A DNA stretch of 64,000 nt, from NCBI GenBank assembly GCA_031396695.1, contig JANNLG010000171.1, positions 6,053 to 70,052 on the forward strand, in the 5' to 3' direction. The translations under genes and the position numbers were made by a program. This DNA is from Deltaproteobacteria bacterium (GTDB lineage: Bacteria; Myxococcota_A; UBA9160; SZUA-336). Below the pieces are notes generated by a model that did no database searches, was not told the origin of the DNA, and was given only the letters and a program-made list of their open reading frames with translations. Shown piece by piece: positions 23,854 through 61,715 of the stretch (its first letter is position 1; the number at the start of each line of letters is the position of its first letter).

Positions 23854-24773
<920 letters not shown>

Positions 24774-24777
<4 letters not shown>

Positions 24778-25640
24778 ACCGGGAGCTCCTGCGCTCCGAC
24801 GCCGCGCGCGCCGCGCGGGCTCTGCGCGTGCGCGCGCGCCGCGACGTGTCGACGTCGCTGACCGGCGCGTACCGCAGCGCGTTCCGCGGTCAGGGGCTGA
24901 CGTTCGAAGAGCTGCGCGACTACGTGCCCGGCGACGACGTGCGCTGGCTGGAGTGGAACGCGACCGCGCGCATCGGCCGGCCGATCGTGAAGCGCATGCG
25001 CGAGGAGCGCGACGTGGTGCTCGCGCTGCTGGTCGACCTGTCGCCCTCGCTCGACTTCGGCTTCGCGGGCGCGACCAAGCTCGAGGCGGTGCGGCGCGCG
25101 GCCGCGGCGCTGGCGGCGGCCGCGACCGCGGCGCAGGACCGCGTGGCGCTGGCCGTATTCTCGCAGCGACTCACCCGCGTGCTGCCGCCCGCCAGCGGCC
25201 GCTCCGCGCTCGAGCGCGTGTTCCGCGCGCTCGAAGCGCCGAGCGAGGGTGAATTCACCGACGCGTCCGGCGCGCTCGGCTGGGCCGCGGAGAAGCTGCC
25301 GCGCCATTCGGTGGTCGTGCTGGTCTCGGATTTCCTGTTCCCCGATCCGGGGCCGGAGCTGCGCCGCTGCGCGAGCAAGCACGACCTGGTCGCGCTGTGC
25401 GTGCGCGACCCCGCCGATCGGCCCGCGCGCGGGCTCCCGCCGATCCGCGTGCGCGACGCAGAACTGCGTCGCGCACGGTGGTGGAGCAGCAGCGCGGCGG
25501 CCGAGTCCGCGCTCGGAGCGGCGCTGCCCGAACGGAGCTTGCGCGCGATCGGCGCCGACTTCGGCGAGCTGTGGACGGGCACGCGGCTGCTGCCGAGTCT
25601 GTTGCGCTTCTTCGAGGAGCGCGCGCGGAGACGGCATTGA
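24774..25640 (+). CDS. DUF58 domain-containing protein
   Basis: ATGA overlap with moxR. YRSAFRGQGLTFEELRDYVPGDDVRWLEWNATAR is the DUF58 signature. Confidence 0.85.
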
Positions 25641-26524
25641 GGCGGCGTGATGCACTTGCGTGCTCGGTGCTGCTGGCGCTGGCGCCGCTCGTCGGCGGGT
25701 GTCGCGAAGCGGTCACGCTCGAGCCGGGGATCGGCGCGCGCGTCACGCTCGACCGCAGCGAGGCGCGCGTCGGAGATCCGATCGGCGTCACGGTCGAGAT
25801 CGAGACGCCGGCCGGCTTCACGCTGCAGACGCCGCCCGCGCCGGGCGACGGTCCGTTCGCGTCGGACTCCCTGCGCCTGATCGCGCCGATCTCGACGCCC
25901 GCGGGTCTGCGCCACCACTTGCTCTGGGTCGTGCGCGCGCGCGAGGTCGGCGACCAGTCCCTGCCGTGGCTCGAGATTCCGCTCGTGCGGCCCGACGGCG
26001 CGATCCAGCCGCTGCGCGTCGGCGGCGTGCCGCTCGCGGTGCGCTCGGTGCGCGCGGATCTGCCCGCGCGCGAGGCGGTGTTCGACATCCGCAGCGCGCC
26101 GCCGATCGAGCCGACACCGCTCTGGGTATGGGCGCTCTGCGCGGCCGGGATCGGCCTCGCGGTGCTGGCCTTCCGCGCGCTGCGCCGGCGCGCGAAATCG
26201 CTGCAGGCCGCGAGCACCAAGATCAGCGACGCCGGCCGCGCGGCGCTCGCGGAGCTCGCCGAAGCGGAGCGCGACGGCGATGCGCGCTCGTTCGCGGAGC
26301 GCGTGCGCGCGGCGCTGCTCTCGTTCGTGGGCCACGTGTGGAGCGTCGACACCGCCAGCGCGACGCCGGCCGAGCTGTCCGGGGCCGTCGATCGCGAGCT
26401 CGTGCGCATCCTGCACACGCTCGAGCGGGCGCGCTTCGCGAAGCGGCCCGCGCTCGCACCGCTCACACCGCTCGCGTCACAGGCGCGAGAGCGGGTCCGC
26501 CATGTGGCCAATCTCCGCGGCTAG
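25637..26524 (+). CDS. hypothetical lipoprotein/membrane protein in the Bat-operon slot usually held by a DUF4381-type protein
   Basis: TTG 25637 overlaps the DUF58 stop. Has the lipobox LALAPLVGGC and one internal TM segment (LWVWALCAAGIGLAVLAF). The family call rests on operon position only. Confidence 0.55.
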   Translation: MRRRDALACSVLLALAPLVGGCREAVTLEPGIGARVTLDRSEARVGDPIGVTVEIETPAGFTLQTPPAPGDGPFASDSLRLIAPISTPAGLRHHLLWVVRAREVGDQSLPWLEIPLVRPDGAIQPLRVGGVPLAVRSVRADLPAREAVFDIRSAPPIEPTPLWVWALCAAGIGLAVLAFRALRRRAKSLQAASTKISDAGRAALAELAEAERDGDARSFAERVRAALLSFVGHVWSVDTASATPAELSGAVDRELVRILHTLERARFAKRPALAPLTPLASQARERVRHVANLRG

Positions 26525-27542
26525 TGCGCTCGAGTTCGCGGCGCTCGGCGTCGAGGCGCCGGGTCTGCTGCTCGCCGGGCTCGTGTTGGTGGCGATCGCG
26601 CTGCTCGTCGCGCTGGCGCGCGGACCGCGACGCTTGCGCGTGCCGAGTGCCGGTCGCGACGCGGCCTCGTCGCGCGCGCGGCCGGATCTCGCGTTCCTCG
26701 TCTCGGTCGCGCTGCGCTGCGCGGCGCTCGGGCTGCTCGTGCTGACCGCCGCGCGTCCGGTCGGGCTCGTGCCGGAGAACCCCGCGGCCGGCTCGGGTGT
26801 GGATCTGGTGATCGCACTCGACGCGTCGGGCAGCATGCTCGCGCTCGACGGCCAGCTCGACGGCCGCCAGGTCACGCGACTCGAGCTCGCCAAGTCGGCG
26901 GTGTCGGACTTCGTGCACGCGCGCAGCGGCGACCGCATCGGACTGGTCGCGTTCGGCGAGCACGCCTTCACGCTTTGTCCGCTGACGGTCGACCATCGCC
27001 TGGTGCAGGAGTCGCTCGCGCGCGTCGAGGCGGGCCTGGTCGGCGACGCAACCGCGGTCGGCGAGGCGATCGGGCTCGGCACGCAGCGGCTCTCGATCTC
27101 GGGCGGACCCGAGGACGGACAGCGCATCCTGGTGCTGGTCACCGACGGTCGCCACAACTCGGGCAAGCTCGCGCCGCAGACCGCGGCCGAGCTCGCGAAG
27201 CGCGCGGGCGTGCGCATCCACGCGGTCGGCGTCGGAACTTCCGGGCTCGTGCCGTTCGCGCAGCCGGGCGCGGGTGCGCCAATGCGCTTCGAGCGCGTGG
27301 ATCTCGACCGGGACACACTTCAGAGTGTCGCCGCGAGCACCGGCGGACATTTCTTCCACGCGCGTCGACCCGAGGATCTGGGCGGAGTGGCCGCGGCGAT
27401 CGACCGGCTCGAGGCGCGTCCGCGCGCGAGCGAGCCGCGCTACCGCCACGCCTCGCTCGCGCCGCTCTCGCTGTCGCTCGCGCTCGGCTTGCTGCTGCTC
27501 GAAGCCGCGCTCGCGCACGGGCTGCTGCGGCGGCTGCCGTGA
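26502..27542 (+). CDS. VWA domain-containing protein (BatA-like)
   Basis: ATG 26502. N-terminal TM segments are followed by the VWA MIDAS motif DLVIALDASGSM, then LVAFGEHAF and ILVLVTDGRHN, and a C-terminal TM segment. Confidence 0.85.
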   Translation: MWPISAASALEFAALGVEAPGLLLAGLVLVAIALLVALARGPRRLRVPSAGRDAASSRARPDLAFLVSVALRCAALGLLVLTAARPVGLVPENPAAGSGVDLVIALDASGSMLALDGQLDGRQVTRLELAKSAVSDFVHARSGDRIGLVAFGEHAFTLCPLTVDHRLVQESLARVEAGLVGDATAVGEAIGLGTQRLSISGGPEDGQRILVLVTDGRHNSGKLAPQTAAELAKRAGVRIHAVGVGTSGLVPFAQPGAGAPMRFERVDLDRDTLQSVAASTGGHFFHARRPEDLGGVAAAIDRLEARPRASEPRYRHASLAPLSLSLALGLLLLEAALAHGLLRRLP

Positions 27543-29164
27543 CCACGCTCGTGTGGCTCGCGGCGTGCGCGATCGCTGCATTCGCGGGGCAGGCCGCGAT
27601 TCGAGGCCGTCGTGAGCTGCGCGCGTGGCTCGGCCGCGACCCGACGCCGGTTGCGCGCGCGACGCGGGCGCTCGCGCTGACGCTCGCGGCGCTGCTCTCC
27701 GCGCACGCGCTCGGACTCGCGCTCGAAACGCCCGATCGTCTCTCCGATGATTTCGCCGACGTGGTGATCGCGGTCGACACCTCCACCAGCATGGACGTGA
27801 CCGACGTCGCGCCGTCCCGCCTGCGCCGCGCGCTCCGTACGGCAGAGCGCGCGGTCCAAGAGGCACAAGGGGTGAGGTTCGCGCTGGTCGTGTTCGCCGG
27901 CGAGGCGTTCATCGCGCTTCCGCTCACCCAGGATCGCGACGCCGTGCTCACCTATCTGCGCGCGCTCGACAGCGAGACGATCTCGGTGAAAGGCAGCGAG
28001 CTCGCGCGCGGGCTCGAGGCCGCCGCTCGCGCGTTCGATCCGCGCTCGAGCCGACCGCGCACGGTGCTGCTGTTGACGGACGGCGAGCACTTCGGCCCCG
28101 CGCCCGACGCGCAGATCGCCGCGCTCGGCCGGCTGGCCGCGCAGGTGGTCGCGATCGGCTACGGCACCGAGGAGGGCGGCGCGGTGCCGGGTCAGCTCGC
28201 GCTCGCCGAAGCGGTACGGCGCGGCGAGGCGACCGTGTCTCGGCGTGGCGACGCAGTTCTGCGTCGGGTCGCGTCCGAAACCGGGGGCGCCTATTTCCGC
28301 GAGATCGAAGAGCGCCCCACGACCGCCGATCTGCTGCCGCCGCCCGTGCCGAGCGCGGAGCCCGAGCCGGAGTCGAAGGCCGATCCGCTGCTGCCCTGGT
28401 TGCTGGCGGCCGCGCTCGCACTGCTCGCGGAGCTCTGGCTGTCGGGCCAGCCGGGCGTTCGCATCTCGCGCCCGCGCGCGCGACGGCGTCAACTCGCCGC
28501 CGCGACACTGGCGGGTGTCGCGCTGGCGGGAACCGCCTTCGGCCCGCTCTCGAGCTGGCTCGAACAGGGCGACCAAGCGCTGGCCGCCGGGCGTCCGGAC
28601 GAGGCGCTCGCGCTCTACCGCGAGGCCGAGCGCGCGCGCGGCCCCGACGCGCGAACGCAGATCCGGATCGGCAACGCGTTGTTCCGGCTCGAGCGCATGG
28701 ATCAGGCCGCCAGCGCCTACCTCGAGGCGCTGCGCGCGCTCGCGCCCGACGATCCCGAGGCGCGCTTCGCGGCGAGCTTCAACCTGGGCAACACGCTGGT
28801 CGCGCAGAAGCACTTCGAGGAAGCGCGCGATGCGTACTGGGCCGCGCTGCTCGCGATGCCCGAGAGCCCCGAAGCCAAGTTCAACTACGAGTGGTCGGTC
28901 GAGCGCATTCTCGAAATCCCGCCGGTGCCCGAGACCGAGCCGAACCGCGACGCGCAGAGTGACTCCGAAGCGCCGCAGCCCTCGCCGTCCGGCGACGCGC
29001 CGGGTCGGGGCGAGCCGCAGCCCGCTCCCGGCGGACTCGACGAGCGCGAGGCGCAGGCCTGGCTCGAGACGCTCGAGGAGCCGGTCGGCGAAGCGCTCGA
29101 GCGCCAGGTGACCAACGAATTCGACGGCCAGCCGCGCGCGCGTCCGGGCAGCAAGACGTGGTGA
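27539..29164 (+). CDS. VWA domain protein fused to TPR repeats (BatB-BatC-like fusion)
   Basis: GTGA overlap at 27539. VWA motifs are VVIAVDTSTSMD and VLLLTDGEHF. After a TM segment come TPR-like repeats (ALALYREAERA..., AASAYLEALRA..., ARDAYWAALLA...). Confidence 0.8.
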   Translation: MTTLVWLAACAIAAFAGQAAIRGRRELRAWLGRDPTPVARATRALALTLAALLSAHALGLALETPDRLSDDFADVVIAVDTSTSMDVTDVAPSRLRRALRTAERAVQEAQGVRFALVVFAGEAFIALPLTQDRDAVLTYLRALDSETISVKGSELARGLEAAARAFDPRSSRPRTVLLLTDGEHFGPAPDAQIAALGRLAAQVVAIGYGTEEGGAVPGQLALAEAVRRGEATVSRRGDAVLRRVASETGGAYFREIEERPTTADLLPPPVPSAEPEPESKADPLLPWLLAAALALLAELWLSGQPGVRISRPRARRRQLAAATLAGVALAGTAFGPLSSWLEQGDQALAAGRPDEALALYREAERARGPDARTQIRIGNALFRLERMDQAASAYLEALRALAPDDPEARFAASFNLGNTLVAQKHFEEARDAYWAALLAMPESPEAKFNYEWSVERILEIPPVPETEPNRDAQSDSEAPQPSPSGDAPGRGEPQPAPGGLDEREAQAWLETLEEPVGEALERQVTNEFDGQPRARPGSKTW

Positions 29165-30396
29165 GGGTTCGAGTCGCCGCGCTGCTCGCGCTGGTTGCGC
29201 CGTTCGCGCCGTTCGCGCTCGGGGCGAGCGCCGCGCGCGCCGAACCCGCGCAAACGCTCGAGGTGCAGGTCGCGCTCGATCGCGAGCAGGTCTTCGTGCA
29301 CGAGCAGGCGGTGCTCTCGGTGATCGTGCGTCACACGCCCGATGCACGCGCGAGCTGGGAGCCGCCGCCCTTCGACGGTTTCTGGGCCGAGCGCATCGGC
29401 ACGCGCGGCCTGCCGCCCGACGCGCAGGGACTGCCGCGCACCGAGTTCCGGCGCGCGCTGTTTCCGACGCGCAGCGGCGAAGTCGCGATCGCGGCTTCCA
29501 AGCTCGTGCTCGTCGGCGAGGGCGGCTCGGAGCTCGAGATCCCCGTACCCGGCAGCGTGCTGCGCGTGCTGCCGCTGCCCGCCGAGGTGCCGGAGGGCGC
29601 GCTGGTCGGTCAGCTCGAGGTGCGCGTCAGCGCGAGCGACGATCGCCTGCGCTTGGGCAAAGCGCTCTCGCTCACGATCGAGCTCGCCGGCGAGGGCAAC
29701 GTGTGGGACGCGAAGGCGCCCGCGCTCGAGGCGCTCGTCGGCCCCGACGTCGAGGTGTTCCCCGAGGCCCCGCTGATCTCGATCGGCGAGAGCGCCGGCC
29801 GCGCCACCACGCGCCGCACCTTCCGCTATGCGCTCGTGCCCTCGCGCACGGGCACGCTGCGCGTCGAGCCGGTGCGCTTTCCGTACTTCGACCCGAGCCG
29901 GCGCGCGCTCGCGAGCGCCGAGAGCGCACCCGTGCTCTTCACCGTGTTCGCGGGCAGCGCAGACGCGGAAGAGCGCGCCCCGTGGGAGAACCGGCCCGCG
30001 CTGCGCGAGGCGACGCGCCTGCCGCTCGCCTGGCTCGCGTTCGCGTTCGCGGCCGCGCTCGCGCTCTCGTACTTCCTGCTGTCGCGTCGACGCCGCGCGC
30101 AGGCGGCGCTCGGTCTGACCGGAAGCCCGCCCTCGCCGCGCAAGGCGTTCGAAGCCGCACTCGCGGCGCGCGACACACGCGAGTGTCTGCCGCTGCTCGC
30201 GAACGCCGTGCGCGCCGCGATCACCGTCCGCCACGGCTTCGACGCGGGGACGCTCACGAGCCCGGAAATCGCCTCGCGCAATCCCGATCCGGAAGCGCTC
30301 GCGCTGCTGCTCGCGCTCGACCGCGCGCGCTTCGCGGGCACCGCCCGCGCCGACGACGCGCTGGTCGCCCGCGTGCGCGCGTACCTGAAAGTCTAG
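29158..30396 (+). CDS. BatD-like protein
   Basis: GTG 29158 overlaps the upstream stop. Has a signal peptide (VAALLALVAPFAPFALGASAARA). The repeated segments ...VFVHEQAVLSVIV..., ...FRRALFPTRSGEVAI... and ...FRYALVPSRTGTLRV... are followed by a C-terminal TM segment, as in BatD. Confidence 0.7.
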   Translation: MVRVRVAALLALVAPFAPFALGASAARAEPAQTLEVQVALDREQVFVHEQAVLSVIVRHTPDARASWEPPPFDGFWAERIGTRGLPPDAQGLPRTEFRRALFPTRSGEVAIAASKLVLVGEGGSELEIPVPGSVLRVLPLPAEVPEGALVGQLEVRVSASDDRLRLGKALSLTIELAGEGNVWDAKAPALEALVGPDVEVFPEAPLISIGESAGRATTRRTFRYALVPSRTGTLRVEPVRFPYFDPSRRALASAESAPVLFTVFAGSADAEERAPWENRPALREATRLPLAWLAFAFAAALALSYFLLSRRRRAQAALGLTGSPPSPRKAFEAALAARDTRECLPLLANAVRAAITVRHGFDAGTLTSPEIASRNPDPEALALLLALDRARFAGTARADDALVARVRAYLKV

Positions 30397-45066: not shown

Positions 45067-45636
45067 TCAGCTTCGCGGCACGAGATCGAGATCCGCCTCG
45101 ATCTCGGCGCGCTTCGCGTCGCGCCAGGCGCGGAACTCGGGCCCGTCCCAGGCGCGCTGGTCGCCGAGCAGGTAGCTGCGCGCGTTGCGCTCGTACAGCC
45201 AGGCGTTCAAGCGGTTCTCGCGCGACGAGTCGCGCTCCGCGATCACCTTGGCGGGAATGCCCACGAGCACCACCCCGGGCGGAAACTCCTTGCCCTCGGG
45301 CACCAGTGCACCGCCGCCCACGATCGAGCCCTTCCCGATCACCGCGCCGTCCATGATCGTCGCACCGATCCCGATCAAGCAGTGGTCGCCGATGGTCGCG
45401 CCGTGGATGGTCGCGCGGTGCGTGATCGAGCAGAACTCGCCGATCCGCGTCGGCGCCTCGTAGCCCACGTGGATCATCGCGAAGTCCTGCAGGTTGGTGT
45501 ACCGGCCGATGCGCACCTCCTGCGCCTCCGCGCGGATCACCGCGTGCGGCCATAGCGATGCGTGCTCGGCGATCGTCACCCGGCCGTAGATCTGCACGCC
45601 CGGGGCGCGGAAGACGCTCTCGTGGATCGACTGCAT
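45067..45636 (-). CDS. gamma-class carbonic anhydrase family (hexapeptide-repeat) protein
   Basis: ATG 45636 with GGGGGGAG upstream. The segments WPHAVIRAE...IGRYTNLQDFAMIHV, HRATIHGATIGDHCLIGIGATIMDGAVIG and PPGVVLVGIPAKV match the family. Confidence 0.85.
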   Translation of the reverse strand: MQSIHESVFRAPGVQIYGRVTIAEHASLWPHAVIRAEAQEVRIGRYTNLQDFAMIHVGYEAPTRIGEFCSITHRATIHGATIGDHCLIGIGATIMDGAVIGKGSIVGGGALVPEGKEFPPGVVLVGIPAKVIAERDSSRENRLNAWLYERNARSYLLGDQRAWDGPEFRAWRDAKRAEIEADLDLVPRS

Positions 45637-45704
45637 GGTCGCTCTCCCCCCGGGTGGGTCTAGCCTTGGCGAGGACGGCCGGCCAGCGATACGATGCCGG
45701 GCCC

Positions 45705-46733
45705 ATGGCTGGAAACGTCGAGAAGGGTCGGAAGGTCGCGATCGTCGGTGCAACCGGTGCGGTCGGCGAGGTCTTGTTGCGCGTGCTCGAGGCGCGGAAC
45801 TTTCCGGTGGCCGAGCTGCGGCCGCTGGCGAGCGAGCGCTCGATCGGTACGACCATCCGCTTCCGCGGCGAGCAGATCCCGGTCGGGCTCGCGCAGCCCG
45901 ACGCCTTCGACGGGCTCGATTTCGTGTTCTTCGCCGCGACCGGCGCGCTCTCGAAGACGCTCGGCCCCGAAGTGGCGAAGCGCGGCGCGATCGCGATCGA
46001 CAAGTCGAGCACCTGGCGCATGGACCCGGACGTGCCGCTGGTCGTGCCCGAGATCAACGGCGCCGCAGTCGAGCAGCACAAGGGCATCATCGCCTGCCCG
46101 AACTGCACCACCATCCCGTTCGTGATGGCGCTCGAGCCGCTGCGCCGGCTGTCGCCGCTTCGCCGCGCGGTGATCACGACGTTCCAGTCCGTTTCGGGCG
46201 CGGGTCTGCCCGGGATCGAGGAGCTCGAGTCGCAGCTGAACGCGCTGCACGACCACAAGCCCCTGCCTGAGCCCAAGAACTTCGCGCGTCAGATTGCGAA
46301 CAATGTGGTGTCGCTGTGCGGCTCGTTCGGCGACGACGGCTACACGGACGAGGAAGCGAAGCTGCTCCACGAGTCGCGCAAGATCCTGGAAGACAAGAGC
46401 TTCGAGGTCGCGATGACTTGCGTGCGCGTGCCGGTGCCGGTCGGGCACTCGGCTTCGGTGCTGCTCGAGACGGCCTCGCCGATCTCGCCAGACGCCGCGC
46501 GCCGTGCGCTCGAGGCGTTCCCCGGCATCGTCGTGATGGACGATCCCAAGCACAACATCGTTCCGACGCCGGCCGACGCCGCGGGCCGCGACGAGGTCTT
46601 CGTCGGGCGCATCCGCAAGGACCTGACGAGCGATCGACTCTGGCTCTGGACGGTCGGCGACAACCTGCGCAAGGGCGCGGCCACCAACGCGGTGCAGATC
46701 GCCGAAGAGCTGATGCGCCGGGGACTTCGCTGA
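45705..46733 (+). CDS. asd: aspartate-semialdehyde dehydrogenase
   Basis: ATG 45705. VAIVGATGAVG is followed by the active-site segment IACPNCTT, then QSVSGAG and DNLRKGAATNAVQIAE. Confidence 0.9.
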   Translation: MAGNVEKGRKVAIVGATGAVGEVLLRVLEARNFPVAELRPLASERSIGTTIRFRGEQIPVGLAQPDAFDGLDFVFFAATGALSKTLGPEVAKRGAIAIDKSSTWRMDPDVPLVVPEINGAAVEQHKGIIACPNCTTIPFVMALEPLRRLSPLRRAVITTFQSVSGAGLPGIEELESQLNALHDHKPLPEPKNFARQIANNVVSLCGSFGDDGYTDEEAKLLHESRKILEDKSFEVAMTCVRVPVPVGHSASVLLETASPISPDAARRALEAFPGIVVMDDPKHNIVPTPADAAGRDEVFVGRIRKDLTSDRLWLWTVGDNLRKGAATNAVQIAEELMRRGLR

Positions 46734-48709: not shown

Positions 48710-49813
48710 TCAGGCCGCCGCGGGCGTCTCCGGTAGCGGACCGACGTAGCGCGAGCCGGGCCGGATGATGCGCGAGCTCTGGCGCTGCTCGTCGATGTGC
48801 GCGAGCCAGCCCGCCACGCGCGCGACCGCGAAGGTCGGCGAGAACAGCTCCTGCGGCAGACCGATCGCGTCGAGCAGCACGGCCGTGTAGAACTCGACGT
48901 TCGCGGCCATGCGGCGCTCGGGGCGGCGCTCGCCGAGCGACGCGACGGCGACGCGCTCGACCGCGCGCGCGAGATCGAGCCGATCGCTGCGCAGGCCCGT
49001 CTCGCGCAGGCGCTCGACGGCGCGCTCGAGCACTGCCGCCCGCGGATCGCGCACGCGGTACACGCGGTGGCCCATGCCCATGATGCGCCGGCCCGAAGCC
49101 AGCTCGCCGGTGATCCAGCTCGAGGCGTTCTCGGGCGTGCCGATCGCGTCGAGCATCGCGAGCACCGGCCCGGGCGCGCCGCCGTGGCGCGGCCCCTTCA
49201 GCGCGCCGAGTGCAGCCACCACGGCCGACACCGTGTCGGAGTCGGTCGAAGCGACCACGCGCGCGGTGAACGTGGATGCGTTCATGCCGTGATCGGCGGC
49301 GGTGACCAGGTACGCGTCGAGCGCGCGGCTGCGCGCCGGATCGCTGCCGTGCGCGCTCGCCATGCGCAGGTAGTCGGCGGCGTGACCGAGCGCGGGATCG
49401 GGTGCGATCGGCGCCGAGCCGCGCTGTTTGCGCGCCCACGCCGCCGCGAAGACCGCGACCGAAGCCGTGAGCTCGGCACGCAGCTCGCACTCCGGAATCT
49501 CGCTCGCGCGCAGCTGCGCGAGCGCCCCGCGCACGGCCTCCATGCCGTCGGGCGCATCGAGCGCGCGGCCGAGCGAGCGCAGGCGCGCGAACGCGCGAAC
49601 GCGTGCTCGGCCCAACTCCTCACGCACGTCCTCGTGCGCAATCGGACCGGGCAGCTCGCCGCTCCAGAGCAGCGCGCAGGCCGCCTCGAAATCGGCTCGC
49701 TGCGCGAGCTGCTCCACGTCGTGCCCGCGCACCACCAGGCGGCCGCGCTCGCCGTCGACGTCGGAAAGGCAGGTCTCCGCCACCACCACGCCCTCGAGTC
49801 CATCCATCTGCAT
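48710..49813 (-). CDS. citrate synthase family protein (small type)
   Basis: ATG 49813 (MQMDGLEGVVVAETCLSDVDG...). The segments DHGMNASTF, LKGPRHGGA, GMGHRVYRVRDPR and NVEFYTAV match the family. The rest of track ORF 48710..51052 is an antisense shadow. Confidence 0.85.
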   Translation of the reverse strand: MQMDGLEGVVVAETCLSDVDGERGRLVVRGHDVEQLAQRADFEAACALLWSGELPGPIAHEDVREELGRARVRAFARLRSLGRALDAPDGMEAVRGALAQLRASEIPECELRAELTASVAVFAAAWARKQRGSAPIAPDPALGHAADYLRMASAHGSDPARSRALDAYLVTAADHGMNASTFTARVVASTDSDTVSAVVAALGALKGPRHGGAPGPVLAMLDAIGTPENASSWITGELASGRRIMGMGHRVYRVRDPRAAVLERAVERLRETGLRSDRLDLARAVERVAVASLGERRPERRMAANVEFYTAVLLDAIGLPQELFSPTFAVARVAGWLAHIDEQRQSSRIIRPGSRYVGPLPETPAAA

Positions 49814-49865
49814 CGCACTTCTCCTTGGACCTCTACCTTGCCGCTGATCCATTACTTGATCAACG

Positions 49866-49881
49866 TTGATCGATCGATCAA
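49866..49881. promoter_or_regulatory. perfect 16-bp palindrome TTGATCGATCGATCAA (candidate operator)
   Basis: It lies in the 78-bp gap between the divergent citrate-synthase paralogues. It is preceded by the related 8-bp palindrome TTGATCAA (49856..49863). It lies 10 nt upstream of the GTG of the HTH-fused paralogue. Confidence 0.45.
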
Positions 49882-49891
49882 GATACGAGCC

Positions 49892-51133
49892 GTGAAGACG
49901 CGAACCGACGCAGCGCTCTGCGCGCGCGAGGCGGCCGAATTCCTGGGCGTGAAGCTCGCGACGCTCTACGCCTACGCGAGCCGCGGCCGCTTGAAGAGTG
50001 TGTCCGGGACGCGCGGCCGCGCGCGGCGCTACGCGCGCGCCGATCTCGAGGCACTGCGCGCGCGCAGCGCCGGACCCGCCGCGGGCGCGCTGCGCTTCGG
50101 CGAGCCGGTGCTCGAGACGCGCATCACCGACATGACTCCGCTCGGGCCGGTCTACCGCGACCGGCTCGCGAGCGAGCTCGCGAGCGCACGCGCTCCCTTC
50201 CCGTCGGTCGCGGAGCTGCTTTGGACCGGCGCCCTGCCCGCGCGCGCGCCGAGCTGGCCCGCCGGCGCGACGATCTGGCCGGCGCGCGAGCTCGCGAAGC
50301 TCGTGCCGCGCGGCAGCCCACCGCTCGGCGCGCTCGCGATCGCGCTGCCGGTGCTCGCGGCGAACGATGCCTCGCGCTTCGACGCGCGACCCGAGGCCGT
50401 GCTCGCGCGCGCGCGCGGCTTGCTGCCGCAGCTCGCGGCCTCGTACGCGCTCGCGCTCGATCCACGCCGGCTCGCACCCGCGCTCGAGGCCGGCGACCCG
50501 GCGCGCGCGCTCGCGATCGCGCTCGGCGCGCCGACCACGAAGCCCGCGCTCGAGCTCCTGAACGTCGCACTCGTGCTGCTCGCCGATCACGAGCTGAACT
50601 CGTCCACGTTCGCGGCGCGCGTGGCGGCCTCGACCGGCGCCGACCTGTACGCGTGTCTCGGCGCCGCGGTCGCCGCGCTCAGCGGACCGCTGCACGGCGG
50701 CGCGAGCGAGCAGGTCGAGATCCTCGCTCGCGAAGCTGCGAACGCCGCCGGCGCGGCCAGCGCCGTGCGCGATCGCATGCGCCGCGGCGAGCGCATTCCC
50801 GGATTCGGTCACTCGCTCTATCCGGATGGCGATCCGCGCGTGCCGCCGCTGCTCGAGGCCGCAAGACGGCTTGCCCCACGCGCGCCGCGCGTGAAGACGA
50901 TCGCGGCGATCCTCCACGCGATGGACGAGGCCGGCCGGCCCAAGCCCAACGTCGACGTGGCGCTCGCCTGCGCCTGCGCTGCGCTCGATCTGCCCCAAGG
51001 CCAGGGCCCGGCGATCTTCGCGATCGGCCGCGCGGCGGGCTGGGTTGCCCACATCCTGGAGCAGTACGAGGCCGGCTTCGTGCTGCGACCGCGCGCCCGT
51101 TGGGCGGGCCCCGCTGGTATGCTGCGCGCGTGA
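49892..51133 (+). CDS. citrate synthase family protein with N-terminal helix-turn-helix (excisionase/MerR-type) domain
   Basis: GTG 49892. LCAREAAEFLGVKLATLYAYASRGRLKS is an HTH_17-like motif. The citrate synthase core follows (DHELNSSTF, LSGPLHGGA, GFGHSLYPDGDPR, PNVDVAL). Confidence 0.8.
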   Translation: MKTRTDAALCAREAAEFLGVKLATLYAYASRGRLKSVSGTRGRARRYARADLEALRARSAGPAAGALRFGEPVLETRITDMTPLGPVYRDRLASELASARAPFPSVAELLWTGALPARAPSWPAGATIWPARELAKLVPRGSPPLGALAIALPVLAANDASRFDARPEAVLARARGLLPQLAASYALALDPRRLAPALEAGDPARALAIALGAPTTKPALELLNVALVLLADHELNSSTFAARVAASTGADLYACLGAAVAALSGPLHGGASEQVEILAREAANAAGAASAVRDRMRRGERIPGFGHSLYPDGDPRVPPLLEAARRLAPRAPRVKTIAAILHAMDEAGRPKPNVDVALACACAALDLPQGQGPAIFAIGRAAGWVAHILEQYEAGFVLRPRARWAGPAGMLRA

Positions 51134-51245
51134 GCGGCAAGCCCGAGGTCGATGAGCGGATCGGTCCGTCAGTGGTTCGAATGCGGTGCGGCGAGCTCGG
51201 ATCGAAAACCCGCGGCCTTTTGCCGTGACTACCCCGGAGGCGTGA

Positions 51246-52070
51246 ATGTACGAGCAGATCCTCTACTCGGTCGAAGACCCCGTCGCGCTGATCACGCTGA
51301 ATCGGCCGGAGCGACTGAACGCCTGGACCGATCGCATGGGCGACGAGCTGCGCCACGCGATCGCGCGCGCGGAGGCCGACAAGAGCGTGGTCGGCATCGT
51401 GCTCACCGGGGCGGGCCGCGGCTTCTGCGCGGGTGCGGACCTGAAGGGACTGCAGGCGATCACCGTTGGCGAGCGCGAGCGCGGCGGCACCGCTTCGGGA
51501 CTCGCCGCCGACCCCGGCGACACCGAAATGGGTGAGTCGTTCCGCAAGCACTACTCGTACCTGATGTCGGTGCGCAAACCGATCATTGCCGCGATCAACG
51601 GACCGTGCGCCGGCATGGCGATGCCGATCGCGCTGTTCTGCGATCTGCGCTTCGCGGCCGAGAGCGCGACCTTCACGACCGCCTTCGTGCGCCGCGGCCT
51701 GATCGCGGAGTGGGGCCTGGCCTGGACGCTGCCGCGGCTGGTCGGCTCCGCGCACGCGCTCGACCTGTTGCTCTCGGGCCGCAAGATCGATGCGCGCGAA
51801 GCCGAGCGGATCGGGCTCGTGAATCGCGTGCTCTCCGACGAAAAGCTGGTCGCCCACTGCGTCGACTACGTGCGCGAGCTGGCGGCGAACGCCTCGCCGG
51901 CCTCGATGATGGTGATGAAGCGGCAGGTCTACCAGCAGCTCACGAGTGAACTCGGCCCGGCGTGCGACGAGGCCGTGAAGCTGATGGTGGAAAGCTTCTC
52001 GCGACCCGACTTCAAGGAGGGCGTGCAGTCCTTCCTGGAACGGCGACCGCCGAAGTTCCCGCGCGTCTAG
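51246..52070 (+). CDS. enoyl-CoA hydratase/isomerase family protein
   Basis: Full-length track ORF with GGAGG upstream. The segments ALITLNRPERLNAW, GAGRGFCAGADL and IAAINGPCAGMA match the family. Confidence 0.9.
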   Translation: MYEQILYSVEDPVALITLNRPERLNAWTDRMGDELRHAIARAEADKSVVGIVLTGAGRGFCAGADLKGLQAITVGERERGGTASGLAADPGDTEMGESFRKHYSYLMSVRKPIIAAINGPCAGMAMPIALFCDLRFAAESATFTTAFVRRGLIAEWGLAWTLPRLVGSAHALDLLLSGRKIDAREAERIGLVNRVLSDEKLVAHCVDYVRELAANASPASMMVMKRQVYQQLTSELGPACDEAVKLMVESFSRPDFKEGVQSFLERRPPKFPRV

Positions 52071-52080
52071 AGGAGTCCGC

Positions 52081-53535
52081 ATGGTCGGGTGGCTCTGGCT
52101 CGCTCCGTTCATCCTCGCCTTCACACCGACGGCGATCTGGCTGTACCAGCGCGGCACGCAATCGGCGTTCAGCGAGGTGCACACGCTGTTCATGCCGCTC
52201 GTGCTCGCGTACCTGATTCGCGAGCAGCTGAAGCTCGATCCGGACCCGACCCCGCGCTCGTCAGCACTGGGCTTCCTGTTCGTCGTGCCCGCGCTGGCGC
52301 TGGTCGCGCTCGACGCGGCGATGCACACGCAGATGCTGGGCGCGATCGCGCTGGTGATTGCGCTGCCGGGGATCTCGCTGCTCCTGCTCGGCACGCGCCG
52401 CACGCGCGAGCTCGCGTTCCCGCTCGCGCTGGCCGTGTTCATCGTGCCGATTCCCACGGGCATGCTGACGCCGCTCTACAGCGTGCTGCGGCCGATCGCC
52501 GCGATCGGCACGACCTGGCTGGTGCCGCTGTTCGGCATGCCGATCGCGCGCGTCGGCACGGCGCTCTCGGTGCCGGGACTCGCGGTCGAGGTCGCGGACA
52601 ACTGCTCCGGCTGGTCGTCGCTGCAGGCCGCGGTGATCACGGCGCTGGTGCTCGCGCACTTCTCGAGCTCGAAACAGCGGAGGCTCGCGCTACTGCTCTC
52701 CGCCATCCCGGTCGCGATCGTCTGCAACATCCTGCGCGTGACCGCGCTCGTGTTGCTGGCGCAACGCTACGGCGCCGAGCTGCTCGACACCACGCTGCAT
52801 CCCGCGTCGGGCGTGATCCTGTTCGGTGTCGTGATCGCGGTGCTGTTCGCGATCGCGGGACCCGACGCCATGCGCTCGGCCAAGGCTTCGGGCCAGCGCG
52901 TCGTCGTCGCGACGCGCTACGCGCTGGCGCTCGCGGCGCTCTGCGCGCTCGCGCTGATCCCGGTCGGCATGCACTCGACCGCGCGCCTGCGCGGCGACGA
53001 CTGCGCGAACGCCGCCGCGCTCGTGCCCTCGGACGGAAGCGTCGATCCCGCCCGCGCGCTGTTGATGCAGCAGCAGTACAAGGCCTCGCAGTGGCGCGAG
53101 GGTACGCTGCCGGCAACCGCGGACACGCCGGCGCTTCGCTACGCCGTGATTCGCAACTACGAACCGAGGCTGCTCTACTACCGCGGCTCGCGCCGGCTCT
53201 GGCAGGACGTCGAGCCTGGCGCCGACACCATCGAGTGGCTGGAGTCCGACGACGGCCGGCTGCCGATCGTGCGCTCGCAGCTCGCGGGCGATCGGCCGGG
53301 GCAGCCGCGCGCGGTGATCGCGTCGCTGCTCGTCTACGAGGGCGAGCCCGTCGAAACCGGCTGGCGCGCGCAGCTCCGCGCGGCGCCGCGCCAGATGTTC
53401 ACGGGCAGTCGCCCGATGACCTTGTTCACGGTACGGGGTGACGTGCAGGGCGGCGATCACGCGGCGGTGGAAAAGCGCGCGCACGCGTACCTGCTCGATT
53501 CGTGGCGAACCTACCGGGCTCTGTGCCGGCACTGA
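52081..53535 (+). CDS. exosortase-family protein with C-terminal EpsI-like domain
   Basis: AGGAG lies 5 nt before ATG 52081. The multi-TM core carries the exosortase catalytic signatures: VADNCSGWSS (Cys), CNILRV (Arg) and LHPASG (His). An extra TM segment and a soluble tail of about 200 aa resemble EpsI; that part is inference. Confidence 0.75.
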   Translation: MVGWLWLAPFILAFTPTAIWLYQRGTQSAFSEVHTLFMPLVLAYLIREQLKLDPDPTPRSSALGFLFVVPALALVALDAAMHTQMLGAIALVIALPGISLLLLGTRRTRELAFPLALAVFIVPIPTGMLTPLYSVLRPIAAIGTTWLVPLFGMPIARVGTALSVPGLAVEVADNCSGWSSLQAAVITALVLAHFSSSKQRRLALLLSAIPVAIVCNILRVTALVLLAQRYGAELLDTTLHPASGVILFGVVIAVLFAIAGPDAMRSAKASGQRVVVATRYALALAALCALALIPVGMHSTARLRGDDCANAAALVPSDGSVDPARALLMQQQYKASQWREGTLPATADTPALRYAVIRNYEPRLLYYRGSRRLWQDVEPGADTIEWLESDDGRLPIVRSQLAGDRPGQPRAVIASLLVYEGEPVETGWRAQLRAAPRQMFTGSRPMTLFTVRGDVQGGDHAAVEKRAHAYLLDSWRTYRALCRH

Positions 53536-55769
53536 GCACACGCACCGCGTTCCGAACCTGCCCGATCTGCGAGGCGAGCTGTGGACTCGCGCTCTCGCTC
53601 GAGGGCGAGCGCGTGCTGCGTGTGCGCGGAGACGAGCGCGACGTCACCAGCCGCGGCTACCTGTGCCCGAAGGGCGCCGCGCTCGGCGAGCTGCACCACG
53701 ACCCCGACCGGCTGCGCACACCGCTCGTGCGCGGGCCCGAGGGTCTGCGCGCGGCGAGCTGGGACGAGGCGTTCGCGGAGATCGAGCGGCGCCTGCAGCC
53801 GGTGATCGAGCGACACGGCCGCGGATCGGTCGCCGTCTACGTCGGCAATCCCACCGCGCACGACTACTCGCTCTACGCCTATCTGCCCGCGCTGCTGCTG
53901 GCGGCCGGCACGCACCAGCTCTACACGGCGGGCACGGTCGACCAGCAGCCGAAGCAGGTCGCGGTGAACTGCATGTTCGGCACGGCCTGGGGCATTCCCG
54001 TGCCGGACGTCGACCGCACGCAGTATCTGCTCGTGCTGGGCGCGAACCCGGCGGCTTCAAACGGGAGCCTGCTGGTCGCGCCGGATCTACAGGGCCGGCT
54101 CGACGCGATCCGCGCGCGCGGCGGGCGCGTGGTGGTGGTCGATCCGCGCCGCACGAAGACCGCCGAACGCGCCGATGAATGGCTGCCGATCCGACCTGGC
54201 ACCGACGCGCTGTTCCTGTTCGCGCTGGTGAACACGCTGTTCGCGGAGGGGCGCGTCGCACTCGGCGCGCTCGGCGCGCACGTGAACGGAGTCGAGCGGC
54301 TGCGCGAGCTCGCGGCGGAGTTCACGCCGGAATCGGTCGAGGCGCGTTGCCGGATTCCCGCAACCACGATTCGCAGGATCGCGCGCGAGCTGGCGAGCGC
54401 CGAGCGCGCCGCCGTGTACGGCCGCGTCGGCACCTGCACGCAGGAGTTCGGCACGCTCGCGAGTTGGGGGATCGACGCGCTGAACGTGCTCACCGGAAAC
54501 CTCGATCGCGTCGGCGGCGTGATGTGGAGCCGGCCGCTGGCCGGCGGCGACCACACGCGCGGCGCGAAGGGGCGCGGACCGGAGTTCCAGGTCGGCCGCT
54601 TCCGCACGCGCGTGCGCGGGGCGCCCGAGGTTCTGTTCCAGCTGCCCGCCGCCTGCCTCGCCGAAGAGATCGACACCCCCGGCGAGGGACAGATCCGCGC
54701 GCTCGTGGTGATCGCCGGAAATCCCGCACTCTCGGTGCCCGACGGCGAGCGGCTCGACCGCGCGCTGGCGCAGCTCGACTGTCTGGTCTCGCTCGACCTG
54801 TTCGTGAACGAGACCGCGCGCCACGCACACGTCGTGCTGCCGTCGCCCTCGCCGCTGCAACAGCCGCACTACGACGCCCTGCTCTATCAGGTCGCCGTGC
54901 GCAACGCCGCACGCTACTCGAAGCCCGTCCTGCCGCTCGACGTCGACGCGCTGCCGGAGTGGCAGATCATGCTGCGCCTGGCCGCGATCTTCGCCGGCCA
55001 GGGCGCGAAGGCGGACGCGAACGCGCTCGACGACGGCTACTTCGCCGCGCGGCTACACGCACAGGTGTCGGACCCGAGCTCGCCGATCCACGGCCGCGAC
55101 CCGGGCGAGCTGGTCGCGCTCGCCGCCGGACGGCGCGGGCCCGAGCGCATCCTCGACCTCGAACTGCGCACCGGTCCCTACGGAGACGGCTTCGGCGCCG
55201 TGCCGGGCGGGCTCTCGCTCGCGGAGCTCGAGCGCCACCCGCACGGGCTCGATCTCGGTCCGCTCGAGCCTGCGCTGCCGGACGTGCTGCGCACGCCGAG
55301 CGGCAAGATCGAGCTCGCGCATCCATACCTGGCCGCCGACCTGCCGCGGCTGCGCGAGCGCCTGTCGCGTCCTGACGACGACGGGCTGCTGCTGATCGGC
55401 CGGCGCGACCTGCGCTCGAACAACTCGTGGCTGCACAACGCGCCGTCGCTGATGACCGGTCGCGAGCGCTGCACGCTGGTCGTGCACCCCGCCGACGCCG
55501 CCGAGCGCGGCCTCGGCGGCGGCGATCTCGCGCAGATCCGTTCCGCGGCTGCGACGCTGGTGGTCGCGGTAGAGGTCAGCGACGAGGTCGCGCGCGGCGT
55601 CGTGTGCTTGCCGCACGGCTTCGGACACGGCCGGGCGGGCGCGCGTCTCACGGTCGCCGCACGCCGACCCGGCGTGAACTCGAACGCGCTCTCGGATGCC
55701 CGCGCGCTCGACGCGCCGTCGGGAACCGCGGTCGTGAACGGCATCCCGGTCGAGGTCGCACGCGCCTGA
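53523..55769 (+). CDS. molybdopterin-dependent oxidoreductase (Mo/W-bisPGD family)
   Basis: GTG 53523 (or GTG 53502) overlaps the exosortase stop. The N-terminal 4Fe-4S motif is CPICEASCG...YLCPKG. Molybdopterin and dinucleotide-binding domains follow, ending with the C-terminal VNGIPVEV. There is no in-frame TGA. Confidence 0.85.
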   Translation: MPALSTRTAFRTCPICEASCGLALSLEGERVLRVRGDERDVTSRGYLCPKGAALGELHHDPDRLRTPLVRGPEGLRAASWDEAFAEIERRLQPVIERHGRGSVAVYVGNPTAHDYSLYAYLPALLLAAGTHQLYTAGTVDQQPKQVAVNCMFGTAWGIPVPDVDRTQYLLVLGANPAASNGSLLVAPDLQGRLDAIRARGGRVVVVDPRRTKTAERADEWLPIRPGTDALFLFALVNTLFAEGRVALGALGAHVNGVERLRELAAEFTPESVEARCRIPATTIRRIARELASAERAAVYGRVGTCTQEFGTLASWGIDALNVLTGNLDRVGGVMWSRPLAGGDHTRGAKGRGPEFQVGRFRTRVRGAPEVLFQLPAACLAEEIDTPGEGQIRALVVIAGNPALSVPDGERLDRALAQLDCLVSLDLFVNETARHAHVVLPSPSPLQQPHYDALLYQVAVRNAARYSKPVLPLDVDALPEWQIMLRLAAIFAGQGAKADANALDDGYFAARLHAQVSDPSSPIHGRDPGELVALAAGRRGPERILDLELRTGPYGDGFGAVPGGLSLAELERHPHGLDLGPLEPALPDVLRTPSGKIELAHPYLAADLPRLRERLSRPDDDGLLLIGRRDLRSNNSWLHNAPSLMTGRERCTLVVHPADAAERGLGGGDLAQIRSAAATLVVAVEVSDEVARGVVCLPHGFGHGRAGARLTVAARRPGVNSNALSDARALDAPSGTAVVNGIPVEVARA

Positions 55770-55784
55770 GCGGGCGATCTCGAG

Positions 55785-56654
55785 TCAGGCGTAGCCGGCG
55801 GGCAGCTCGCGGGCCGGTGATTCCTCGAGCAGGTAGCTGCGATTGCAGAACGCTTCGCGGAAGCCGACGCGCTGGTAGACGTGGCGGGCGGCTTCGTTCG
55901 CCTCGTCACAGTAGAGTGTCACGATCTCGTAGCGATCGAAGAGCCGGGCGCAGATGCCGCGAACGCCCTCTGTCGCGTGACCGCAGCCGCGCGCAGCGCG
56001 CGGGACGAACACGCCGCCGAGCTGCACCGTGTTCGCGCTGGCTGCGCCGACGTGCACCTGGAACACGATCCGGCCGCGCGCGCGCGCGATCCACCAGCGG
56101 CCGTCGCGCACGTCGCTCGCGTGGCGCTCGCGGAAGCCCGCGGCGTCGGCGGCCTCGCGGTCGTCGTGCAGGTCTTCGCGGTGCTGCTCCGCGCTGTTCG
56201 CGGTCAGCTCGAGCAGGTCGGACGCGCGCGCCGGCTCGAGCAGCATGCGCTGCGCGGCGGCGCTCGGCCCGCACAGCTCGGCCGCGCGCGCGGCGAACAC
56301 CGGCTCGCGGCGCGTCCAGCGCAGACCCGGGGCGTGGCGCTGGTACTCGCTCCAGAACGGCTCGGTGACGTCCTCGCTGCCCACGATGTGACGCGGCCGG
56401 ATTGCCGTGCGCGCGGCCGCCGCCGCGAGCGGTGCGAACGCGCGCGCGTCGCGCACTTCGAGCGCGGTTCCCCCTTGCGGGCCGATCATCAGCACCGCCT
56501 CGAGCCGCCCGCCGGGCGCGTAGCCGTAGAAGCCCGGCACCCGGCCCAGCACGCCGGCCGCGACCACGTAGTCGAGAAACACGTTGTGGAGCGGCCGCGC
56601 GCGCAGCAGCGCGCGGGCGTCGAAGCCGTCGGCGGCGGTCAGGGGGCGAACCAT
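55785..56654 (-). CDS. GNAT family N-acetyltransferase with N-terminal accessory domain
   Basis: Full-length track ORF. The C-terminal GNAT motifs are QLGGVFVPRAARGCGHA and ARHVYQRVGF. The 150 aa or so at the N-terminus resemble the DUF4081-type accessory domain; that part is inference. Confidence 0.7.
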   Translation of the reverse strand: MVRPLTAADGFDARALLRARPLHNVFLDYVVAAGVLGRVPGFYGYAPGGRLEAVLMIGPQGGTALEVRDARAFAPLAAAAARTAIRPRHIVGSEDVTEPFWSEYQRHAPGLRWTRREPVFAARAAELCGPSAAAQRMLLEPARASDLLELTANSAEQHREDLHDDREAADAAGFRERHASDVRDGRWWIARARGRIVFQVHVGAASANTVQLGGVFVPRAARGCGHATEGVRGICARLFDRYEIVTLYCDEANEAARHVYQRVGFREAFCNRSYLLEESPARELPAGYA

Positions 56655-60656: not shown

Positions 60657-61715
60657 TCAGGCGTAGCGCGAGCGCCGCTTCACCGCAAGCGCGCGCTCGA
60701 GGTAGAAGATCTCGACGCGCTTCTCGTCGCCGGGGCCGTGCTCGAACTTGTGGCCGCGCAGGATCACGTCGAGACGGCCGAGATCGGGGCGGCCCTGCAG
60801 GTCGCTCTTCGCCGCGATCTCCGTCGACGCGAACACCGTGTCGCCCGAGAAGATCGGCGCGGTGTGGCGGCCGGTCTTGTAGACGATGTCGCCCAGACTG
60901 TTGTCCGAGATGTCGGGGCTCGAGAGTCCCAAGCAGAGCGTGAAGGGAATGCCGCCGAACACGACCAGCTTGCCGCCCAGGTAGCGGCTCGGATCGCGGT
61001 CGATCATGGTCTGGTTGCAGTGCACCTGCGAGGTGTTGTCGAGCATGCCGGTCAAAAAGATGTGCTCGTCGGTCATCACGCGGCCGCGCGAGTGCTCGAT
61101 CGTGTCGCCGGGCTTGAAATCCTCGAAGTAGGTGTCGGCGTTCGAGAGGTGCGCGAGCTCGGCGTAGCCGGCGTTCGAGTCGTAGGCGGGCAGCTCGAGC
61201 GCGACGTCCACCTGCGCAGCGGGCACGTCGCCGAGATCGAGCAAGGCGTTCGCCTCGTGTCGGAACACCTGCACCTTGCGCTGGTAGGCGAGCACGATCT
61301 CGCCGGTCTGCTTGCGCGCGACGCTCTGCACGTGCACGACGCCGAGCTCGGGCCGGCTCGCCGAACTTTTCACGCCCAGCACCGTCGTCTCGGTCTCGAT
61401 CGTGTCGCCGACGAAGACCGGCGCGCCGAAGCGCATGTCGATGTACTCGAGGTTCGCGCGCGCGTTCTCGGAGATGTCCTCGACGGTCTGGCTGAACGCG
61501 ACCGCCATCACCAGGCCGGGCGGAATCGGCAGCGCGGCGTAGCCGTAGGCGCGCGCGTAGCGCAGGTTCTTGTGCAGCGGGTTGGCGGTGAACGAGAAGT
61601 CGGTGAAGTGCGCGGTGAGACCCTCGGTGACCGTGCGCCCGCCCTTGTGGCGGAACAGCTGCCCCAGACGGAAGTCCTCGAGGAAGTTGCCGGTCTTCTT
61701 GCGAATCAGTGCCAA
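60657..61715 (-). CDS. MaoC-family double-hotdog hydratase (mesaconyl-CoA hydratase-like)
   Basis: TTG 61715 with GGAGGA upstream. Product is 352 aa. The N-terminus GNFLEDFRLGQLFRH and two hotdog halves are present. The specific substrate assignment is inference. Confidence 0.75.
   Translation of the reverse strand: MALIRKKTGNFLEDFRLGQLFRHKGGRTVTEGLTAHFTDFSFTANPLHKNLRYARAYGYAALPIPPGLVMAVAFSQTVEDISENARANLEYIDMRFGAPVFVGDTIETETTVLGVKSSASRPELGVVHVQSVARKQTGEIVLAYQRKVQVFRHEANALLDLGDVPAAQVDVALELPAYDSNAGYAELAHLSNADTYFEDFKPGDTIEHSRGRVMTDEHIFLTGMLDNTSQVHCNQTMIDRDPSRYLGGKLVVFGGIPFTLCLGLSSPDISDNSLGDIVYKTGRHTAPIFSGDTVFASTEIAAKSDLQGRPDLGRLDVILRGHKFEHGPGDEKRVEIFYLERALAVKRRSRYA

Follow-up and report, generated by a model that had tools for sequence, protein, structure and literature searches.

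The described systems closest to the gene studied here are EpsH and EpsI of Methylobacillus sp. 12S and the exosortase-EpsI fusions (TIGR02602 with TIGR02914/PF11984). According to Haft et al. (2006; PMC1569441), EpsI is "fused with or adjacent to" a protein with eight transmembrane (TM) helices and "has no known function". This description has stood since 2006, and no experimental work on EpsI was found in the literature consulted. Here, a related gene is described from a stretch of 64,000 nucleotides (nt) of Deltaproteobacteria bacterium (Myxococcota_A; assembly GCA_031396695.1, contig JANNLG010000171.1, positions 6,053 to 70,052), referred to below as the window ("64 kb"). It encodes an exosortase of 484 amino acids (aa) with an EpsI-like C-terminal domain and lies between genes for an enoyl-CoA hydratase and a molybdenum oxidoreductase.

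The window protein and the EpsH/EpsI systems have in common a core of eight TM helices with a Cys/Arg/His triad and a partner consisting of one TM helix and a periplasmic domain of ~180 aa, encoded immediately downstream or fused to the C-terminus. Fold class and secondary-structure order are alike as well, and the wider window family adjoins genuine PEP-CTERM proteins. The differences lie in the C-terminal domain, which stays below TIGR02914/PF11984 even at E≤10, lacks the H-x-P-E-x-C motif of EpsI and belongs to a branch with its own invariant cysteine pair (C308/C482), and in the location, outside an exopolysaccharide (EPS) locus and with no PrsK/PrsR/PrsT nearby. Among the named subtypes, XrtA (TIGR03109) scores best, with 132 bits end-to-end over positions 6-256 of 261, and PEP-CTERM-type substrates are presumed in both cases. 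However, this score is far below the 208-bit cutoff, and the window lacks a nearby EPS cluster, PrsK/R/T and the associated acyl-CoA ligase, acyl carrier protein and hydrolases. XrtD (TIGR04152, 486 aa) and XrtW (NF038142, 494 aa) are similar in total length and two-part architecture, and positions 296-456 of the XrtW model, in its C-terminal part, give a weak match (E=6.5e-4) to the stand-alone partner of one distant locus, L045; here and below, L001-L012 are loci of the window's own clade and L013-L053 the 41 loci outside it. In contrast to this likeness, the match of the window protein to either model is confined to the N-terminal ~240-260 positions (115 bits against a cutoff of 400 for XrtD and 107 against 425 for XrtW), and their cognate VPLPA-CTERM signal was not seen. 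The ArtA/PGF-CTERM system has a homologous catalytic core (the window protein carries the TIGR04178 signature) and may, by analogy, serve as a mechanistic model in which removal of a C-terminal TM signal is coupled to anchoring. ArtA differs in being archaeal, in its signal and in having no EpsI-like domain, and lipid attachment has been demonstrated only for ArtA (summarised in bioRxiv 10.1101/2023.06.07.544157).

Overall, the window gene is likely to encode an exosortase fused to a divergent EpsI-like partner, with PEP-CTERM-type substrates encoded elsewhere, transcribed together with unrelated genes and owing its position to the history of the lineage.

The exosortase core and its fused partner

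The gene and its parts are as follows.

52081-53535, + strand: exosortase-EpsI-like fusion gene, 484 aa, from the open reading frame (ORF) list; stop codon TGA at 53533-53535
52081-52866, + strand: exosortase core (aa 1-262), polytopic membrane Cys protease/transpeptidase domain by PF09721, TIGR02602 and TIGR04178
52897-52983, + strand: ninth TM helix (aa ~273-301), from the hydropathy segment 273-301
52984-53532, + strand: divergent EpsI-like periplasmic domain (aa 302-484) with a Mog1/PsbP-like fold; Cys308 at 53002-53004 and Cys482 at 53524-53526

PF09721 covers aa 8-259 of the protein (E=2e-48, 165.4 bits against a cutoff of 25.7), and both generic exosortase models are passed (TIGR02602, 123.4 against 105.55; TIGR04178, 57.5 against 23). 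The catalytic signatures pointed out in a first-pass annotation made from the letters alone are all present, with codons at 52603-52605 for Cys175 (ADNCSG), 52735-52737 for Arg219 (NILR) and 52798-52800 for His240 (LHPASG), and the three residues do not vary across 59 aligned sequences, genuine PF11984-positive exosortase-EpsI fusions among them. The subtype models XrtA, B, C, D, H, J, N, O, Q, S, T, V, W, X, Y and Z and the cyanoexosortases were scored as well. None of the Xrt models reaches its cutoff: besides XrtA, XrtD and XrtW, given above, XrtV scores 97 against 313 and XrtB 74 against 275, and the others are lower. The first-pass annotation had named placement in a well-characterised exosortase type as one outcome that would overturn it, and no subtype model claims the protein. 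Since the generic models are passed, the triad is invariant and no subtype matches, the window gene is, judged from its sequence, a genuine and intact exosortase of an unnamed subtype.

As the same annotation described, an additional TM segment and a soluble domain follow. The hydrophobic segment spans aa 273-301 after TM8, and the soluble part comprises ~183 residues. The ninth helix corresponds to the N-terminal signal-anchor helix of stand-alone partner proteins. In a 121-sequence alignment of the family, only two columns of the domain are invariant, the cysteines C308 and C482 (window numbering), which we infer to form a disulfide.

The proposed resemblance of the soluble domain to EpsI was upheld by remote-homology and fold comparisons, in contrast to the curated EpsI models, which are blank. 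The relationship runs through intermediate sequences, the distant relatives from the genome scan described below. These match the EpsI models below threshold and in register (PF11984, 22.6 against 26.1, E=9e-5; TIGR02914, 19.3 against 42.8, E=6e-4). In the profile chain, the family connects to the intermediates with 100% probability (E=1e-49), and the intermediates align with genuine EpsI along 180 columns at 92% (E=7e-7). Both signature regions of EpsI are in register in this alignment: the LYHHPE motif of the intermediates falls on the H-x-x-E-x-C region of EpsI, and the segment Y..Y.g..V...QL..A...L.G..PMTLF pairs with YWY…L.GR…ALVR of EpsI. Weak matches to PF11984 occur in 9 of the 121 family members, and no other Pfam model recurs among them. 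The C-terminal half of P0073, which is a genuine PF11984 domain, was modelled (predicted local distance difference test score, pLDDT, 84) and has the same order of secondary-structure elements as the window-family domain, and the window-type and genuine EpsI domains matched in fold; as modelled, EpsI and the Cys-pair branch have a common Mog1/PsbP/DcrB/LpqN-like fold. Based on the intermediates, the profile chain, the fold with its order of elements and the split-or-fused precedent, the C-terminal domain is a very divergent member of the EpsI superfamily (DUF3485/TIGR02914) that is missed by the curated models.

When 1.84 billion cluster representatives were searched exhaustively with phmmer, only 209 clusters matched the partner domain at E≤1e-3, 105 of them at E≤1e-10. 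Nearly all 209 are stand-alone proteins of ~210 aa with an exosortase gene alongside, the fusion found in the window's Myxococcota clade being rare, and where public sources name the members of the branch, they are called "hypothetical protein". Full-length homologues of 484-489 aa form ~50 clusters, in which the named organisms are Myxococcota metagenome bins; look-ups with the exact sequence of the window protein returned no record. According to a genome scan, the domain has distant relatives in further Myxococcota as well as in Acidobacteriota, Nitrospirota, Methylococcaceae and Desulfobacterales. A few of these are fused; most are stand-alone proteins of ~205-220 aa with an N-terminal TM helix, encoded directly 3' of an exosortase gene, as at L013-L025, L036, L041, L045 and L050-L053. 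The stand-alone homologues start with M-I-S-x-R-Y, followed by the TM helix. This split or fused occurrence parallels that of EpsH/EpsI as described by Haft et al. (2006). Two apparent variants were rejected: P0063, at first taken for a C-terminal domain encoded on its own, is a gene call that lacks the N-terminal part, and P0054 is a gene-calling error that reads through from the hydratase gene.

Selection on the gene was estimated as the ratio of nonsynonymous to synonymous substitution rates (dN/dS) against L006, at a dS of ~0.28-0.35. Distant pairs were dropped because dS is saturated or compressed at ~90% GC content at third codon positions (GC3). The ratio is 0.26 for the whole exosortase gene, 0.14 for the core and 0.28 for the C-terminal domain; the corresponding values of the neighbours are 0.11 (hydratase) and 0.16 (oxidoreductase). 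The exosortase gene is under purifying selection that is looser than that on its neighbours.

Sorting signals near the window gene and its relatives

Six-frame scans of the whole window gave no ORF ending in a PEP-like motif, a TM helix and a basic tail, in line with the earlier observation that the window holds no PEP-CTERM-like protein. The substrate, described at first pass as unexplained, is thus still absent from the window, but relatives do have PEP-CTERM or PEP-CTERM-like proteins nearby. Genuine PEP-CTERM proteins lie within 10 kb of the exosortase/partner pairs of four distant Acidobacteriota loci (L028, L040, L046 and L048), with TIGR02595 scores of 21.6-27.2 bits against a cutoff of 16. 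Within the clade, L004 encodes a 316-aa secreted protein ending in AVPEPGQLALVGLASLAAAARLLSMRK. Its only homologue, P0232, is 50% identical and keeps AVPEP, the helix and the basic tail.

A further tail was found in L006, where an insertion of ~700 bp (12814-13505, - strand) lies between the oxidoreductase and GNAT genes, 2.3 kb 3' of the exosortase gene. It contains a small frameshifted gene whose product would have a signal peptide and end in a VPEP-TM-RR tail, VVVPEPRAGMLLWLGATGLAIRRS, scoring 13.9 bits with TIGR02595. This gene is either a PEP-CTERM-like pseudogene or carries an assembly frameshift. At the corresponding position, the window has only 15 nt. An apparent 'PEP' tail at L022 was rejected as a wrong-frame stop-to-stop ORF.

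Gene neighbourhood and its history

At 71% GC, real genes in the window were picked by GC content at the codon positions (GC3 >0.85, and ~0.5 at second positions, GC2). The three plus-strand ORFs of the hydratase, exosortase and Mo-oxidoreductase have a GC3 of 0.90-0.93 and the codon-position pattern of real genes. Very long antisense ORFs, at 48710-51133 and in many other places (e.g. 780 aa and 778 aa on opposite strands of the same DNA), are artefacts of the 71% GC. The features around the exosortase gene are as follows.

45558-46733, + strand: asd (aspartate-semialdehyde dehydrogenase) gene, marker of the older syntenic frame
51099-51191, no strand: point at which ~1.6 kb with the carboxyltransferase gene was deleted, from blastn comparisons with L006, L005 and L001
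51246-52070, + strand: enoyl-CoA hydratase gene, 274 aa (NF004857, 361 bits against a cutoff of 341; PF00378, E=6e-56)
52071-52080, + strand: 10-nt spacer aggagtccgc, with a Shine-Dalgarno-like AGGAG 5 nt before the ATG
53502 or 53523 (GTG starts) to 55769, + strand: gene for a cytoplasmic-type oxidoreductase with a molybdenum bis-pyranopterin guanine dinucleotide (Mo-bisPGD) cofactor (PF04879, PF00384, PF01568)
55785-56654, - strand: convergent GNAT acetyltransferase gene, no NCBIfam match
60657-61715, - strand: MaoC gene, marker of the older syntenic frame

These matches bear out the first identification of both flanking genes, and the junctions were re-read at the same coordinates. The hydratase stop TAG (52068-52070) is followed after the AGGAG-containing spacer by the exosortase ATG at 52081. 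Downstream, the GTG at 53523 proposed as the oxidoreductase start overlaps the exosortase TGA, as does a second in-frame GTG at 53502. Two relatives, L006 and L008, begin the oxidoreductase gene with an ATG that forms an ATGA overlap with the exosortase stop; the window has CTG at 53530-53532, so the ancestral start has been mutated and one of the upstream GTGs must serve instead. The gap between hydratase and exosortase genes is 8-13 nt in five clade genomes (the window, L006, L008, L002 and L009). No terminator-like site was found at the hydratase/exosortase or the exosortase/oxidoreductase junction; a simple promoter scan, which is uninformative for this organism, found 0 sites. Therefore, the single transcript proposed at first pass is plausible, but co-transcription would not be evidence of shared function. 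The exosortase gene is probably co-transcribed with the hydratase gene and translationally coupled to the oxidoreductase gene, without having a pathway in common with either.

The first-pass annotation called the operon logic of the hydratase-exosortase-oxidoreductase order unexplained and suggested asking whether the order is conserved. It proved to be confined to close relatives. The hydratase gene lies directly 5' of the exosortase gene in every clade locus (L001-L012), where the whole ~20 kb is syntenic and protein identities are 84-94% for hydratase, carboxyltransferase and MaoC but only 51-95% for the exosortase. Outside the clade, 0 of the 41 loci have a hydratase near the exosortase. 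The slot 3' of the exosortase gene varies even within the clade: it holds the Mo-oxidoreductase in the window, L005, L006 and L008 only, which form one subclade, a convergent GDSL lipase gene in L002-L004 and L009-L012, and nothing in L001 and L007. In the nearest outgroup, L014, the order is asd, exosortase, stand-alone partner, membrane sulfatase-family protein, GNAT (- strand) and MaoC (- strand). Here asd is directly 5' of the exosortase gene and the whole acyl-CoA block is absent. This block, consisting of acetoacetyl-CoA synthetase, two citrate-synthase-like genes, carboxyltransferase and hydratase, lies between asd and the exosortase gene only in the window clade. Since L014 keeps the asd, exosortase, GNAT and MaoC genes in this order, the frame is older than the clade, and since the hydratase adjacency occurs only in near relatives, shared descent suffices to explain it. 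The puzzle of the genomic context is thus largely settled as one of lineage-specific gene order.

Two apparent cases of independent linkage to the oxidoreductase were rejected. P0062 of L005 had looked like a distant relative at 44% identity, but its DNA is 86% identical to the window and the assembly is ridden with frameshifts; the protein identity is an artefact and L005 gives no independent evidence. This long-read assembly (ena:ERZ25039555 contig_6206) has a split asd gene, truncated hydratase and ABC genes and many other genes broken by frameshifts. The 740-aa Mo-oxidoreductase near the split exosortase of L052 is a paralogue with 30% identity.

Other settings, with neighbours of envelope or EPS type in the outgroups, were found outside the clade. 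At L013, the exosortase/partner pair lies beside a sulfatase-family membrane protein, a sulfotransferase and a Wzx-type flippase, and at L050/L051 it follows a lipoate/2-oxoacid-dehydrogenase cluster. The sulfatase-family membrane proteins (PF00884; LTA-synthase/phosphoethanolamine-transferase-like) adjoin the split pair at L014 (10501-12564) and L013 (3768-5645) and may be a recurrent envelope-modification partner.

None of the conserved window neighbours belongs to a curated exosortase-associated family. The GNAT protein, GDSL lipase, ABC exporters, MaoC protein, citrate-synthase-like proteins and a Kdo-kinase-like protein were each considered and rejected as exosortase-associated, having no match to such a family. 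PrsK, PrsR and PrsT are not found nearby; the window holds a single pair of kinase and regulator, which is NtrB/NtrC-like (PrsR model, 405 against a cutoff of 502.6). Compared with the EPS-locus XrtA/PEP-CTERM type, the neighbours here are instead acyl-CoA, citrate synthase, Mo-enzyme, GNAT and ABC genes.

The ~1.6-kb deletion is clean and corresponds to L006 6626-8218. It removed the carboxyltransferase gene (PF01039, mmdA-like), which in every relative lies between the citrate-synthase-like gene with a helix-turn-helix (HTH) domain and the hydratase gene; tblastn found no copy elsewhere in the 64 kb. Upstream of this site, a citrate synthase gene (48710-~49840, - strand) matches NF009005 with 393 bits. 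Divergent from it, ~49900-51133 (+ strand) encodes a citrate-synthase-like protein fused to an N-terminal excisionase-type HTH. The fusion (PF12728 HTH_17 and PF00285 in the L001/L002 orthologues) is kept throughout the clade, matches no NCBIfam model at 1e-5 and may be an enzyme-derived metabolite-sensing regulator. Farther away, window positions 23854-30396 (+ strand) hold a Bat/MoxR-type aerotolerance-like run, recognised from translations only, of an AAA-type gene, a DUF58-like gene and then genes with TM-anchored C-termini; it is unrelated to the exosortase.

Competing explanations and implications

Several observations weigh against the interpretation favoured here. The C-terminal region alone matches no Pfam or NCBIfam model even at E≤10, including TIGR02914, which the first-pass annotation had recommended for this check, and PF11984; the close-family profile reaches only 0.4% against genuine EpsI in hhalign, which is not significant, and a profile merged from family and intermediates only 74%. 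The EpsI link therefore depends on the intermediates and the fold and not on a direct family match. Moreover, the window clade has lost the His-Pro-Glu motif that EpsI shares with the intermediates and has LYYRGSRRLW at that position, so the function of the domain may have shifted. The substrate class is also less firm. No substrate was identified for the source genome, of which the 64-kb window was examined; neither of the two PEP-CTERM-like tails of the clade reaches the TIGR02595 cutoff (13.9 bits, or weak matches to family models) and one is a frameshifted remnant, so PEP-CTERM-like substrates are suggested rather than demonstrated. At most Cys-pair-type loci (L013-L025, L050-L053), no sorting-signal protein lies within 10 kb. 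The cognate signal could accordingly differ from classic PEP-CTERM, although dispersed substrates fit as well. Finally, the coupling to the hydratase is kept across the whole clade, and synteny alone cannot formally separate such coupling from function.

The exosortase might form a functional operon with the acyl-CoA enzymes (hydratase, carboxyltransferase), the GDSL lipase, GNAT and the MsbA-like ABC exporters, which, by analogy with the established ArtA-dependent lipid attachment, would build or attach a lipid-type anchor. The narrow gaps, the ATGA overlaps, a hydratase that stays while other genes come and go, and acyl-, lipid- or export-related neighbours (GDSL lipase, GNAT, the MsbA-like ABC pair) all agree with this. 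It is nevertheless unlikely, because the adjacency is limited to genomes with 84-94% identical flanks and recurs at none of the 41 outside loci, asd takes the upstream place in L014, and no neighbour belongs to a curated exosortase-system-associated family. The hydratase itself is an ordinary PRK06210-type enzyme which, with the carboxyltransferase, citrate synthases and acetoacetyl-CoA synthetase, has the look of a catabolic block, and the window lost the carboxyltransferase yet kept the exosortase. A bolder version, in which the whole Cys-pair branch (~200 clusters in Myxococcota, Acidobacteriota, Desulfobacterales and others) is a distinct, unnamed exosortase system with a signal other than classic PEP-CTERM, tied in the window clade physically and functionally to acyl-CoA/lipid enzymes and placing an acyl or lipid anchor on the sorted proteins, is the least probable of the readings considered. 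Recruitment of an independent Mog1/PsbP-like domain with another role, e.g. sensing or lipid binding, would account for the blank EpsI models and the 0.4% hhalign result, and as this fold is common in periplasmic proteins, a shared fold alone is weak evidence. We consider this improbable in view of the significant chain of intermediates, in register at the EpsI signature motifs, the sole recurrence of PF11984, the identical architecture of signal-anchor TM helix and ~180-aa domain, the identical genomic relation to the exosortase, immediately downstream or fused, and the nearly identical order of secondary-structure elements. The gene might also be an orphan relic, drifting after substrate loss and kept only by its place inside an operon. 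Its faster evolution (51-57% against 84-94% identity in the same genome pairs, and a higher dN/dS than hydratase and oxidoreductase), the empty window, the frameshifted L006 gene and the lost His-Pro-Glu motif fit such decay. However, envelope proteins usually evolve faster than core metabolic enzymes. The frame is intact and full length in ~50 clusters, dN/dS is well below 1 in both domains, and an intact signal is kept in L004 and P0232; purifying selection, along with the invariance of the triad and the Cys pair, speaks against decay, and we regard the relic reading as very unlikely.

Under the favoured reading, an exosortase fused to its EpsI-like partner, the accessory protein would be carried at the exosortase C-terminus rather than encoded by the next gene. 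The core, an intramembrane Cys/Arg/His protease and probable transpeptidase, would recognise secreted proteins with a tail of VPEP motif, TM helix and basic cluster, cut the tail at the membrane face and pass the protein to a cell-surface acceptor. The EpsI-like domain on the periplasmic side could act as a substrate-, acceptor- or partner-binding module, and the substrates would be encoded elsewhere in the genome. The exosortase gene itself would sit in an old slot between asd and GNAT/MaoC, with the acyl-CoA block upstream of it in this clade and the downstream slot filled by different genes in different subclades.

For gene-neighbourhood analysis, the locus illustrates that tight operon packing in a single lineage is no evidence of shared function. 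If the lipid-anchor reading were true, the system would be a bacterial counterpart of ArtA-dependent lipidation. The Mog1/PsbP/DcrB/LpqN-like fold suggests that EpsI-type domains might be periplasmic modules binding a ligand or partner. The EpsI superfamily is wider than the curated models and includes a separate Cys-pair branch, paired with unclassified exosortases in several phyla, which supports adding two annotation models, for the partner domain and for the exosortase subtype that goes with it.

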